The notes: a model not told the origin generated them from the sequence alone. A stretch of DNA of 64,000 bases from Candidatus Bathyarchaeota archaeon (GCA_963832745.1 CAWHVC010000001.1:192001-256000); one strand, 5' to 3'. Shown: positions 56,354 through 60,056, counted from the first letter of the stretch. A program made the numbers and translations.

Positions 56354-57643
56354 ATGTCAGAAAAATACGGTGAAATGTACAAAACCCTTGACATGAACAT
56401 AGAAAAACACGACCAACTCCTAAACATATTAGGCCAATACTACACTGCAGTTTATTTAAACCAAAAAAACAGACCTAAAAAAATGGATTATTTTGATTTC
56501 GTAGTCTCAGAAGTTCATGGGCTGCGAATCAAAGAATTAAACGATCTGCGAGCTCAAGGCAAAAAAGTGGTTGGAGCATTCTGCGTTTACGCGCCAGAAG
56601 AAATCGCCTACGCAGCCGACGCAAGCATGGTTGGCCTCTGTGGAGGCGCAGACTTTTCGGTTCCAGACGCGGAAACGGTAATCCCCCGAAACCTGTGCCC
56701 ACTAATCAAATCTTTCTACGGTTTCAGGCTAAACGGAACCTGTCCATATTTCCAATCAAGCGACCTCGTAGTCGGCGAAACCACTTGCGATGGCAAAAAG
56801 AAAGTCTATGAACTCTTAAACGACCTTATCCCAACATACGTAATTGAAATTCCACATAAACCGGATACCCAACGTGGTAAAGAGTTTTGGCTAAAAGAGG
56901 TTGAAGATTTCAAAACAGAAATAGAAAAATTAACAGGCAACAAAATTACAGAAGAAAAACTAAAAGCGGCAATCGAACTTATCAACAATAAACGTAAAGC
57001 TTTGCAGCGCTTGAACAGTTTACGCCAAAAAAAGCCAGCTCCAATCAGTGGATTAGATGCGCTCTTGATTAGTCAAATTAGCTTTAACGATGATCCTGTT
57101 CGTTTCACTGCAAAAGTCAATGAATTATGTGATGAGCTTGAAGAACGTGTCCGTAACAGTGTCGGTGTGGAATCTCCAGATGCGCCTCGTTTGATGGTTT
57201 CTGGTTGTCCCATGGCTATTCCTAACTGGAAGCTTCATAGCATCATCCAAGATTTAGGTGCTTCAGTTGTTGTTGAGGAAAGCTGTGTTGGCACACGGTA
57301 CTTTACTGATTTGGTTGAACCGAAAAGCGACAAGATGGAAGACCTGCTTTGGGCTATCGTTGAGAAATATAGTAAAATTCCCTGCGCATGCTTTACACCA
57401 AATGACAAAAGAATCGAAAATGTCAAGCAACTTGCCAAGGACCATGGAGTTGACGGCGTAATCTATTATACACTGCAGAACTGTCATGACTACAACGTGG
57501 AAGCAGTTAAAGTTGAACGCGCCTTAAAAGCAACAGATTTGCCTATGCTGAAAATTGAAACCGATTACACAATGGGTGATTCTGAACAAATAAAAACACG
57601 CGTTGAAGCTTTCCTTGAAATAATTCAAGGCAAAAAACAATAA
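56354..57643 (+). CDS. Double-cubane-cluster protein / 2-hydroxyacyl-CoA dehydratase D-like reductase
   Basis: FCVYAPEE, LCGG, NLCPLIKS, CPYF, ETTCDGKKK, GCP, ESCVG, CACFTPN, ETDY. Confidence 0.88.
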   Translation: MSEKYGEMYKTLDMNIEKHDQLLNILGQYYTAVYLNQKNRPKKMDYFDFVVSEVHGLRIKELNDLRAQGKKVVGAFCVYAPEEIAYAADASMVGLCGGADFSVPDAETVIPRNLCPLIKSFYGFRLNGTCPYFQSSDLVVGETTCDGKKKVYELLNDLIPTYVIEIPHKPDTQRGKEFWLKEVEDFKTEIEKLTGNKITEEKLKAAIELINNKRKALQRLNSLRQKKPAPISGLDALLISQISFNDDPVRFTAKVNELCDELEERVRNSVGVESPDAPRLMVSGCPMAIPNWKLHSIIQDLGASVVVEESCVGTRYFTDLVEPKSDKMEDLLWAIVEKYSKIPCACFTPNDKRIENVKQLAKDHGVDGVIYYTLQNCHDYNVEAVKVERALKATDLPMLKIETDYTMGDSEQIKTRVEAFLEIIQGKKQ

Positions 57644-57704: not shown

Positions 57705-58730
57705 TTGAGTTACAGGTTAACCAAAGTTGTACCCATTCATGGATGCAGTTGCAAGCTCCCCCAGTACCAGCTTGGCGGATTGCTGGAAAAGGCAGGCTTA
57801 TCCGGAGGATACGGCGAAGACGTTTTGGCAGGCGCATGGGAAAACAGCAGCGTAGTAAAAATCACCGATAAGCTCGCAGTTTTAAATACGCTTGATTTTT
57901 TCACGCCCATGGTTGATGAACCAGAAATTCAAGGTAGAATCGCTGGAAGCAACGTTACAAGCGACATTTACACTTTAGGCGTAACTAACATTGCAAGTTT
58001 ACTTACCATAATGGCTTATCCTGAAAACATGCCCGATGAATTGGCTGTTGGAATGCTCAAAGGTTTAGGAGATTTTTGTCGCGAAATGGATATTCCGCTT
58101 GTTGGTGGACATACTATACGCAACCCTTGGCCAATTATCGGCGGCGCGGCAACGGGTATTGGTGAAGTTGGTAAAATCGTTTATACTCGCGGAGCGCAAG
58201 TGGGTGACCGACTGTTTTTGACTAAACCTTTGGGAATTGCACCTGCAATGGCTGCTTACCGTCTACGCAAGGAGGAAGAGGGTAAAGAATTGCTTGTTGA
58301 CGTCCCAGCGGACCTTGTTGAGGAAGCCGTTAACAAGGCAATTGAGGGCATGATTACTTCTAACAAGCCTGTAGCAGAAGTAATGCAGAAAGTACCAGTC
58401 CATGCAGCCACCGATATCACCGGTTTTGGGCTAAAAGGACACTCAGCAAACATGGCAATGCTGGGAAAAGTCGACATAATAATCAACAACCTCTATGTAA
58501 TTCCTGGTACGCCTATGTTGTCAGAACTTTTCGGTTATCCTTTGTTAACTGGTGAAGCTAAAGAAACTGCAGGCGGCATTTTGATGGCAGTTGCGGATGA
58601 AGATGCCGATGCCTTGCAAAGCGAGCTTGAAGGGTGTAAAGTGCGGTTCTGTGAGGTCGGTTATGTGGCGGCTGGCGAAGGCGTTGTTCATATTCAGAAA
58701 GACGCGAGAGTAACTGAAGCTAAAGCTTAA
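57705..58730 (+). CDS. selD: Selenophosphate synthetase (Cys form)
   Basis: RLTK....GCSCK, DFFTP, SDIY, GGHT, LTKPLG, TDITGFGL.GH; GGAGG upstream of TTG 57705. Confidence 0.93.
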   Translation: MSYRLTKVVPIHGCSCKLPQYQLGGLLEKAGLSGGYGEDVLAGAWENSSVVKITDKLAVLNTLDFFTPMVDEPEIQGRIAGSNVTSDIYTLGVTNIASLLTIMAYPENMPDELAVGMLKGLGDFCREMDIPLVGGHTIRNPWPIIGGAATGIGEVGKIVYTRGAQVGDRLFLTKPLGIAPAMAAYRLRKEEEGKELLVDVPADLVEEAVNKAIEGMITSNKPVAEVMQKVPVHAATDITGFGLKGHSANMAMLGKVDIIINNLYVIPGTPMLSELFGYPLLTGEAKETAGGILMAVADEDADALQSELEGCKVRFCEVGYVAAGEGVVHIQKDARVTEAKA

Positions 58731-58789
58731 CTGGAGCCTTTCAAACAACCTTTTTTTAACTTGCTAATTGGGTGAAAAAGCGCCATTAG

Positions 58790-58836
58790 GACCTACCCCT
58801 CTTAGGTTTCTGCATACAACCTCTAATAGGCTCCAA
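58790..58836 (+). repeat. Dispersed repeat R2, copy C
   Basis: 38/47 identity to copy A; similarity to copy B extends upstream to about 58768 (TGAAAAAG..CATTA). Confidence 0.85.
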
Positions 58837-58970
58837 TTTTGCGGCTATTTGTGATTTTGTTTTTCTATCGGTGGAGATTTTTGCGCTTGTATCATTTGGT
58901 ACTAAATTGTACAATATTGCATCAGATTTGTCGCAATCTATAAACACTAGTTTTTTCTTTAAACTTATTT

Positions 58971-59219
58971 GCAGGCTTGGGAGCAAGCTTTAGATGCAAT
59001 GCAGTGAGGCACAGAAGCGTGCTGATTAAAATCAGCGAAAAATCAGTGCGCGATTGAGACTTTGCCTCTTTGGGCTGAAATCGTTGCAGAATGTTGAATG
59101 CATCTAAGCCGTGAAGCGACAGATAAAGAAACGGCGATTAGAAGTCTGTTGCGTCGTCGAAGACACTGTTTAGGTGAGCCGTCTATCAACAATAAGGCTC
59201 AGACTAAGCCTGCTCACAA
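58971..59219 (+). ncRNA. Candidate novel structured ncRNA with H-type pseudoknot
   Basis: TTTAAA at 58958-63; closing stem, nested helices and pseudoknot (see findings); G-U pairs favour the + strand. Confidence 0.65.
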
Positions 59220-59501
59220 TTAGGAAGTGGATCAAAGAATTCAACCAAAAAGAGGTTTGAAGATTTTTGATATTCCACTTTTTTCTAATTTTATCAAAAT
59301 TTTGGAAATCGCAAGTTTTTTTAATCCACTTAGCCCTAACTTTTACTTAGGCCTTAAAAGAAATGAAAATTCCAAGTTCATATCTTTCCTTTGTTTTTCT
59401 TTGTTGGTATTAGCATTCTTTTTTGTTTTGCCTGTTCACGCATCTGTTTCTTGGAGAGTCATAATCGCTACTGTAATATCATTAGCTTTAGTTTGGAGAC
59501 A

Positions 59502-60056
59502 CTATCGCCCATTAACGAAACCAAAAAGTGATAACTCATCAGCAGTTATGCCTGCACGTTGAAGTTTAACAAGACAAGCTTGATACTGCTCTTCAGTAAA
59601 TTTTGTTGCCTTTATGGGTTGATTTGTGAAGTGGCTTGTTTCTTTGGCTGCTCTGCCTCTTCTTAGGGCGATGCGTTGCTTTTTGAACCTGTCCAATGCT
59701 TTGCAGTCTTCAGACAGCATCCCAAACGGGGTGTTAGGGAACTGCCTGCAGCCGCTAGGCCTAATCTCATAAATTGAGCATACATTACCTACTTGAAAAG
59801 GACACTTGTTATGCGTAACATGCCAATCGTATTCGTCTTCGCCAGCTTCAAAAATTTTGCCTAATTCTTCCTTAAGTGCCTCAAATTTTGCGTAAGCTTC
59901 AGGATTTTCTTTGGGGTTGCCATGAATTTCTCCTGCGTTAAGGAAATCGTCAAGGGTGCAACAGACGCCACATTTGTCACAGAGGAATGGCAAATTGATG
60001 GACCAGTCGCCGTCTTTGTTTTTAAATTCCAAGTGAATGTAGCATGTTTCAACCAT
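59502..60056 (-). CDS. YkgJ family CxxCxxCC cysteine-cluster protein
   Basis: CDKCGVCC...CPF....CSIYEIRPSGCRQFP. Confidence 0.88.
   Translation of the reverse strand: MVETCYIHLEFKNKDGDWSINLPFLCDKCGVCCTLDDFLNAGEIHGNPKENPEAYAKFEALKEELGKIFEAGEDEYDWHVTHNKCPFQVGNVCSIYEIRPSGCRQFPNTPFGMLSEDCKALDRFKKQRIALRRGRAAKETSHFTNQPIKATKFTEEQYQACLVKLQRAGITADELSLFGFVNGR

Follow-up and report, generated by a model that had tools for sequence, protein, structure and literature searches.

We found that an intergenic segment of Bathyarchaeia DNA carries what appears to be a stand-alone gene for a structured noncoding RNA, whose mature form is most likely a 216-nt circle that is excised at a canonical bulge-helix-bulge (BHB) motif and folded into two homologous, pseudoknotted modules. 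The putative archaeal gene spans positions 58888-59284 of the window, by which we mean the whole 64,000-nt stretch analysed (G000:C1:192001-256000, from the 3.02-Mb genome G000). For transcription, BHB site, circle, and two-module fold all taken together, we estimate a probability of roughly 0.78; that the RNA is transcribed from its own promoter and contains a BHB processing site is, jointly, close to certain. In the model that we favor, transcription would proceed from a BRE/TATA with two palindromic operators, starting near G58971 and ending at an oligo-T run past a 3' hairpin, with the promoter elements being placed by conservation and the exact transcript ends being predictions. P1, a 4-bp helix, and two 3-nt bulges form a canonical hBHBh' motif; the splicing endonuclease would cut within each bulge, and the excised piece would then be closed by RtcB into the circle, 58987-59202.

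The initial annotation of this locus quoted the sequence at 58958-59219 correctly and placed the element correctly, and its proposals of a structured RNA and of a new ncRNA class have both held up: window 58971-59213 is conserved with decisive comparative evidence (94 homologues), and the RNA is conserved, covarying, independently transcribed, and absent from Rfam 15. Its interpretation as a whole was partly supported, and it missed the BHB processing site, the circular product, and a promoter link to lysine and arginine biosynthesis. On one side of the element a gene ends at 58730 (+), and on the other there is a convergent gene at 59502-60056 (-); the element is richer in G+C, as had been noted, with values of 0.41-0.45 inside and 0.28-0.38 in the intergenic flanks. 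In a comparison with Rfam 15 that used the linear sequence, no family (RNase P, SRP, tmRNA, riboswitch, C/D or H/ACA sRNA, HEARO/omega RNA, or other) reached its gathering score anywhere in the window, and a search of 58700-59500 at E<=10 gave five junk matches only, all with E>=3.2. The reported lack of tRNA, RNase P, and SRP signatures is also borne out: ARAGORN finds no tRNA and no tmRNA, and canonical RNase P RNA and SRP RNA genes sit elsewhere in G000, the SRP RNA scoring 156 bits. The RNase P RNA gene, of the canonical archaeal type (185 bits), is located at G000:C1:258727-259030 (+), about 2.7 kb past the window end. The circle has no coding potential: each frame meets three to seven stops in one turn, and none is endless. 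A 111-aa ORF with a GTG start and hydrophobic stretches (59227-59562, +) overlaps the 3' trailer hairpin and T-run; it has no conserved counterpart among the flanking families and is therefore probably spurious.

A profile search of fetched loci yielded 96 distinct full-length copies in Bathyarchaeia genomes. Public stretches matching the pattern numbered 91, and among the 80 listed, nearly all are titled as Bathyarchaeota or Bathyarchaeia MAGs. BLAST searches with 58940-59240 gave matches bounded at about 58965-59214. Within the genus, 23 of the 36 other genomes had a match; elsewhere in the order, 24 genomes representing 11 other families had none. Of 401 genomes in the class, 31 contain a strict pattern, and these belong to a single family (26/40 genomes of genus g1 and 4/12 of g26); the 298 genomes of other families in the class have none. 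A covariance model of the 5' part identified copies in 10 of 151 family genomes, and these fall in five of the 70 genera sampled (g1, g26, g28, g32, and g36). G000 has a single copy, and several relatives have two or three. Because about a third of the genus genomes searched yielded no copy (13/36 by BLAST, 14/40 by pattern), the RNA is either not essential or was missed by the search in those genomes.

To describe the fold we used an alignment of 94 homologues (A2), with an energy-free search for runs of paired columns and explicit pair counts; this helix-wise count replaced raw mutual information, because a split between two subgroups dominated the mutual information signal. The elements of the fold are as follows.

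58971-58980, + strand: 5' strand of P1, the outer (exonic) helix of the BHB, pairing with 59204-59213 (covariation)
59006-59068, + strand: module 1, comprising P2 (59006-11/59063-68) and P3 (59017-27/59041-51)
59033-59077, + strand: PK1, candidate pseudoknot of the P3 loop CAGC (59033-36) with GCTG (59074-77)
59082-59093, + strand: possible linker hairpin between the modules, CGTT/AATG (weak)
59101-59176, + strand: module 2, comprising P4 (59101-09/59168-76) and P5 (59116-24/59144-52)
59131-59182, + strand: PK2, pseudoknot of the P5 loop ACGGC (59131-35) with GCCGT (59178-82)
59204-59213, + strand: 3' strand of P1, pairing with 58971-58980 (covariation)

On A2, this model has 92.3% of cells paired, compared with 30-40% after the partners have been shifted by 1-3 columns, and 43 of its 50 base pairs show compensatory changes; none of 500 shuffles reaches the observed values. 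The abundance of G-U pairs identifies the + strand as the RNA strand. All of the main helices contribute, with compensatory changes at 8 of the 10 pairs of P1 (95.9% of cells paired), 4/6 in P2 (95.2%), 10/11 in P3 (93-96%), 8/9 in P4 (89.2%), 8/9 in P5 (87.9%), and 5/5 in PK2 (89.5%). PK1 is 99.7% pairable in A2 but invariant there, and hence gives no covariation signal; the pairing is expected by analogy with PK2 in the homologous module, and is supported by a second genus, g28, in three genomes of which it is replaced by CAAC/GTTG. In the same genus PK2 is AGGC/GCCT, and P1 and the BHB inner helix covary. The linker hairpin has at least 3 bp in 73/94 copies in single-sequence folds, which is weak evidence.

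The fold drawn in the initial annotation, 78.4% paired overall across the 94 homologues, survives in part. Three of its helices stand, namely GAGGCA/TGCCTC, which is P2, the 11-bp helix that is P3, and GCGACAGA/TCTGTTGC (87.6% paired), as does its alternative closing stem, in which GCAGGCTT/AAGCCTGC belongs to the 10-bp P1. Four others do not. The main closing stem is 39.5% paired over its testable portion (58977-84/59206-13), the remainder (58985-90/59214-19) lying beyond A2; TAGATGCA/TGCATCTA is 64% paired; the hairpin GCCGT (59108-12)/ACGGC is 71.9% paired with one compensatory pair; and TGAGCC/GGCTCA is 92% paired, yet has no compensatory pairs and is broken at one pair in 37/94 copies. 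The pairing drawn as a pseudoknot is an ordinary hairpin stem, and the true pseudoknot is PK2. Folding energy, which had been suggested as a check, provides modest and weak evidence, with z=-2.58 for the + strand (2/200 shuffles as good), z=-1.96 for the - strand, and z only -1.66 for the element folded as a circle.

The two modules resemble each other. When module 1 was aligned with module 2 in 24 of the 94 copies, the mean z was 4.56, versus 0.86 for a reversed control, and a covariance model of module 1 also matches module 2 of the same loci with E of 2e-8 to 5e-8. There is thus little doubt, from this comparison together with the covariation of the helices and PK2, that the circle would consist of two homologous tandem pseudoknotted modules. 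Each comprises an outer helix, an asymmetric internal loop rich in GA/AAGAC, and an inner hairpin, the A-rich loop of which pairs with the sequence that immediately follows the outer helix on its 3' side.

The two most conserved blocks lie around 58980-92 and 59193-59203, and with P1 they form the BHB motif, as listed here together with the product.

58981-58987, + strand: 5' half of the BHB, with central-helix GAGC (58981-84), bulge A-A-G (58985-87), and a cut at 58986/58987
58987-59202, + strand: probable mature circular RNA of 216 nt, with the joint in contigs of X1, X2, and X3
58987-58992, + strand: putative post-ligation hairpin Pc, pairing with 59193-59198, with a UCAG loop that would carry the ligation junction
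59197-59203, + strand: 3' half of the BHB, with central-helix GCTC (59197-59200), bulge A-G-A (59201-03), and a cut at 59202/59203

The 4-bp central helix, both 3-nt bulges, and a 3-bp inner helix are intact in 94/94 copies, the central helix being paired as GAGY/GCUY, and the bulges reading A-N-G and A-G-A, in every one. The 10 bp of P1 serve as the outer helix, and the inner helix, 3 bp in all 94 copies, has six covarying bp in g28. This arrangement matches the hBHBh' definition in PMC7714728, which comprises a 4-bp helix, two 3-nt bulges on opposite strands, and flanking helices of two or more Watson-Crick pairs each. The Pc pairing is possible in 100% of cells, with no variation among the A2 copies.

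Contigs from four metatranscriptome runs (X1, X2, X3, and X6, from four studies) were placed on 58600-59600. A 203-nt contig of X1, with no differences from the window, runs from 59131-59202 straight into 58987-59117, and the same joint, 59202 to 58987 (back 216), is also present in contigs of X2 and X3. Loose ends before 58987 read 59190-59202 in X2, X3, and X6, and a loose end after 59202 reads 58987-98 in X2. The two cuts are placed symmetrically, each separating the second base of its bulge from the third, as would be expected of a splicing endonuclease. Because the contigs join 59202 to 58987, and the cuts lie within the BHB bulges, the mature RNA is most likely the 216-nt circle, and with the junction seen at the contig level we consider this circular product highly likely. 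The predicted circle length across homologues is 195-216 nt, with a median of 202. The junction is one of assembled contigs, not raw reads, from RNA libraries that can contain DNA, and contigs carry no strand, transcript-end, or expression-level information; those placed span none of P1, the 3' hairpin, or the neighbouring genes. Contig depths reach 5056 (X2), 2041 (X3), 311 (X6), and 5.4 (X1), and these are sums over related organisms, not expression. One X6 record (18) has a relative's sequence that extends 65 nt upstream of 58980, and may be a precursor, read-through, or DNA.

We considered whether the RNA works instead as a linear structured small RNA, with the joined contigs being assembly artefacts or reflecting DNA tandem copies in related strains. 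The evidence does consist of contigs only, k-mer assemblers can wrap repeats, and partial tandem duplications exist in DNA (module 1 is present twice in genome G013, and two copies in G015 are about 860 bp apart). However, the joint is exactly at both of the positions predicted by a BHB that is invariant in 94/94 copies, the X1 contig shows full identity to G000, in the DNA of which the element occurs just once and in linear form, and the known DNA duplications join at other positions, such that we regard a linear RNA as quite unlikely. A different concern is that BHB cleavage also frees a 5' leader and a 3' trailer, which are joinable by RtcB, so the circle could be an intron-like by-product, with either the ligated flanks being functional or nothing at all, as in a selfish BHB element. 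A trailer hairpin motif, GTGGA...TCCAC, is indeed present in 45/94 copies, but the leader is the P1 strand only, 49/94 copies are without the trailer motif, and all of the covariation and nearly all of the sequence conservation lie inside the circle; we therefore give this by-product explanation very little weight. As for the enzymes that would form the preferred circular product, G000 encodes EndA-family proteins (two PF01974 matches, 102.8 and 72.7 bits) and RtcB (a PF01139 match of 582.6 bits), and from the presence of these genes we infer that cutting depends on an EndA-family endonuclease and joining on RtcB.

The region upstream of the RNA is conserved for about 90 nt in the 94 copies when anchored and aligned. 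The elements that would bound the primary transcript are these.

58888-58904, + strand: putative distal palindromic operator, consensus TGTnnCAAATGGnACA, upstream of 66/93 copies
58915-58939, + strand: putative proximal palindromic operator, directly abutting the BRE/TATA, from upstream conservation
58939-58946, + strand: TATA box, homologue consensus TTTATAA, from 94 aligned upstream sequences, about 27 nt before P1
59227-59284, + strand: 3' trailer, comprising the hairpin GTGGA...TCCAC (59227-78) and then a T6 run (59279-84), in 45/94 copies

The conserved TATA box is that at 58939-46 and not the TTTAAA at 58958-63 that had been pointed out earlier. From the position of the conserved box and the usual archaeal TATA-to-start distance, the transcription start is predicted at about G58971. 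A generic scan for sigma-70 promoters and terminators gave nothing of use here, the genome being archaeal. At the other end, a hairpin followed by at least five T residues is present about 10 nt past P1 in the 45 copies with the trailer motif, and this hairpin and T-run are presumed to mark the end of a primary transcript of about 314 nt, where they may act in termination.

Could the RNA then act in cis on a gene downstream of it, as a leader or riboswitch, in line with one of the initial proposals? The tandem modules are aptamer-like, and 11/96 copies are followed, at a distance of about 177 nt, by a member of one ORF family (about 78 aa). Nonetheless, this is the largest same-strand downstream family, with no other above 11/96, the next gene in G000 is convergent, a terminator-like hairpin and T-run follow the element, and the structured part is excised; a leader function is thus barely credible, and the riboswitch-like proposal is not sustained. 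An examination of neighbouring genes, also suggested earlier, shows that no flanking gene is conserved, the largest family occurring at 18/96 copies. Representatives were scanned for 10 of the 12 largest flanking families listed (CxxCxxCC, CBS, MFS, glutamine cyclotransferase, ELP3_N, pyrophosphatase, radical SAM, Ssb-like, and two with no Pfam match), and these resemble ordinary housekeeping proteins; with no transposase, reverse transcriptase, or Cas protein among them, the notion of an orphan guide scaffold of a mobile element, such as a TnpB/IscB omega RNA, a retron, or an IS110 bridge RNA, also falls away. The convergent neighbour at 59502-60056 (-) resembles the CxxCxxCC-domain family (PF03692 in a homologue), which is the commonest flanking family (18/96), and its recurrence reflects synteny in a subset of species.

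The two palindromic boxes connect the RNA gene to amino acid biosynthesis. They are 31 bp apart, and the offset of the proximal from the distal operator (27 nt) is the same as that at the lysW and argG promoters; the distal operator is matched by its position weight matrix at C1:250888 in G000. A 56-nt matrix, built solely from 63 RNA-gene promoters, scores at or above the cut-off (>=15) at just three sites in the 3.02-Mb genome, these being the RNA gene, lysW, and argG. In other species of the genus, it scores 23-40 in 28/30 lysM-lysW loci and 27-47.5 in 30/30 argG loci. The lysW-like/lysX-like operon is divergent from a gene for a LysM-like Lrp regulator. The family match for argG is above its cut-off, and those for the lysW-, lysX-, and lysM-like genes are below theirs, the LysM-like protein scoring 164.9 bits on NF040947 (cut-off, 180). 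According to PMC3597687, the LysM of Sulfolobus activates lysW through a palindromic box that immediately precedes the BRE/TATA, and its binding is weakened by lysine and then by arginine. We think it fairly probable, from the shared promoter sequences, that the RNA gene belongs to one regulon with the lysine/arginine biosynthesis genes; that the LysM-like Lrp protein itself controls the RNA gene, as its adjacency to lysW and its sub-threshold family match would suggest, is a more tentative proposal that we rate at somewhat below even odds. Were the LysM-like regulator in control, the RNA would be made when lysine or arginine is limiting. The dual-operator promoters at the lysW-like operon and at argG in G000 are located at C3:257067-257118 (-) and C3:234096-234147 (-), and the gene divergent from argG encodes a 191-aa protein whose C-terminus weakly matches aspartate kinase (ACT-like).

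Both boxes are present in the 66 RNA copies noted above, and the other 27/93 have a different conserved upstream motif. When this second promoter class was used as a pattern in five genomes, zero-mismatch matches occurred only at its own loci and other matches were at the control level, the best of these having no TATA after it, and no regulon was found. Divergent homologues in genus g28 have a third upstream type with TTAAT-rich inverted repeats, and because their upstream regions differ, control of the RNA promoter seems to have been swapped between lineages.

The operator link also bears on whether the RNA is a circular modification guide of the C/D or H/ACA type, with the internal loops acting as guides and L7Ae bound to k-turn-like G.A pairs. 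Circular archaeal C/D box sRNAs are known, as is a C/D sRNA inside a tRNA-Trp intron (accessible text of PMC12558985). As read off A2, G-A dinucleotides appear to be opposed at the foot of both P3 and P5, and each outer helix appears to be followed, 8-10 nt on, by an ACA triplet, which could be taken as guide-like features. But there are no C/D or H/ACA matches in Rfam even at E<=10, two covarying pseudoknots are foreign to both architectures, and the operators tie the RNA to amino acid biosynthesis, with which, to our knowledge, no modification guides are co-regulated. A guide function is, in our estimate, highly improbable.

As to what the preferred circle might do, its most likely role would be that of a stable trans-acting RNA made during the response to lysine/arginine limitation. 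An exonuclease-resistant circle could act in trans, its two equivalent modules binding two copies of one partner, which might be a small ligand, a dimeric protein, or the end of an RNA. We offer this trans-acting, two-copy binding scheme as a speculation that is rather unlikely to be correct in full. A narrower suggestion, and an improbable one, is that the circle is a trans-acting sensor/effector of amino acid status, switched on together with lysine and arginine biosynthesis. In that case each module could bind one copy of a partner such as a Lys/Arg-related metabolite or, by analogy with the T-box, the 3' CCA end of uncharged tRNA, which might be contacted via the near-invariant UGG that precedes each pseudoknot strand. 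If a sensor of this kind were real, the RNA would be a tandem 'aptamer' that is both circular and stand-alone, and it would represent a new kind of archaeal riboregulator; circularity would give the RNA a long life in starvation.

Several known systems share some of these features. The circles excised at BHB motifs in Archaea (from tRNA introns and pre-16S/23S rRNA) are alike in the canonical motif, the symmetric cuts, and circularisation of the excised piece, whereas here the RNA gene has no tRNA, rRNA, or mRNA host, has its own regulated promoter, is flanked by only a 16-nt leader and a trailer hairpin, and encodes a double-pseudoknot fold of about 200 nt that belongs to no known family. The circularly permuted SRP RNA of Thermoproteus is a stand-alone ncRNA gene whose functional form arises through BHB cleavage and circularisation; however, it is a permuted member of a universal family, while the canonical SRP RNA of G000 is encoded elsewhere and there is no partial Rfam match at this locus. 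Tandem-aptamer riboswitches (glycine and NAD+-I), as well as the pseudo-symmetric c-di-AMP riboswitches, resemble our RNA in having two homologous modules, each with a pseudoknot or junction pocket, but differ from it in that it is trans-encoded, circular, and archaeal, and has no expression platform or Rfam match. The Sulfolobus LysM regulon is similar in its palindromic box upstream of the lysW BRE/TATA, in the adjacent lysM-like gene, and in having arginine and lysine targets; here there are two boxes, of which the proximal one abuts the BRE, and the putative targets include an RNA gene; neither 'non-coding' nor 'sRNA' occurs as a term in PMC3597687. Endonuclease substrates listed in PMC7714728 are tRNAs, rRNAs, one mRNA, and one 5' UTR, and the BHB-derived circular RNAs known from the accessible parts of PMC12558985 and PMC7714728 include tRNA introns, rRNA intermediates, C/D sRNAs, and others.

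In Rfam and the accessible literature, apart from supplementary tables (which may list circRNAs), this RNA is nowhere described, and we found neither a dedicated, regulated gene with such a circle as its only conserved product nor the double-module fold; in the same literature, again excepting supplementary tables, we found no link of an RNA gene to the lysine/arginine regulon. Should these findings be confirmed, the gene would be a dedicated one in which the tRNA-splicing machinery of Archaea serves solely to produce a stable circular RNA with a complex, duplicated pseudoknot fold, and it would add an RNA gene to an Lrp/LysM-type amino acid regulon. It would also provide a concrete, testable handle on RNA-based regulation in the Bathyarchaeia, which are abundant and of which few members have been cultivated. 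Those who engineer circular RNA may also be interested in the compact BHB cassette; one system built on archaeal BHB motifs has been reported.

We note that some homologues depart from the usual gene architecture. At G013:C12:34774-35063 (-) there is a three-module variant in which module 1 is tandemly duplicated in the DNA; the profile is matched over positions 1-115 and then 22-236, and the covariance model matches three times in succession. Contig C18 of G015 has two full copies of the RNA gene on the same strand (56925-57140 and 57783-57999, about 860 bp apart), with the trailer hairpin absent from the second copy and kept in the first. Finally, a degenerate copy at about 2480-2870 of G025:C14 is without the BHB 5' half and a recognisable module 2. 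It has a promoter of the lysine/arginine type and some of module 1, and it ends in the 3' hairpin and T-run.
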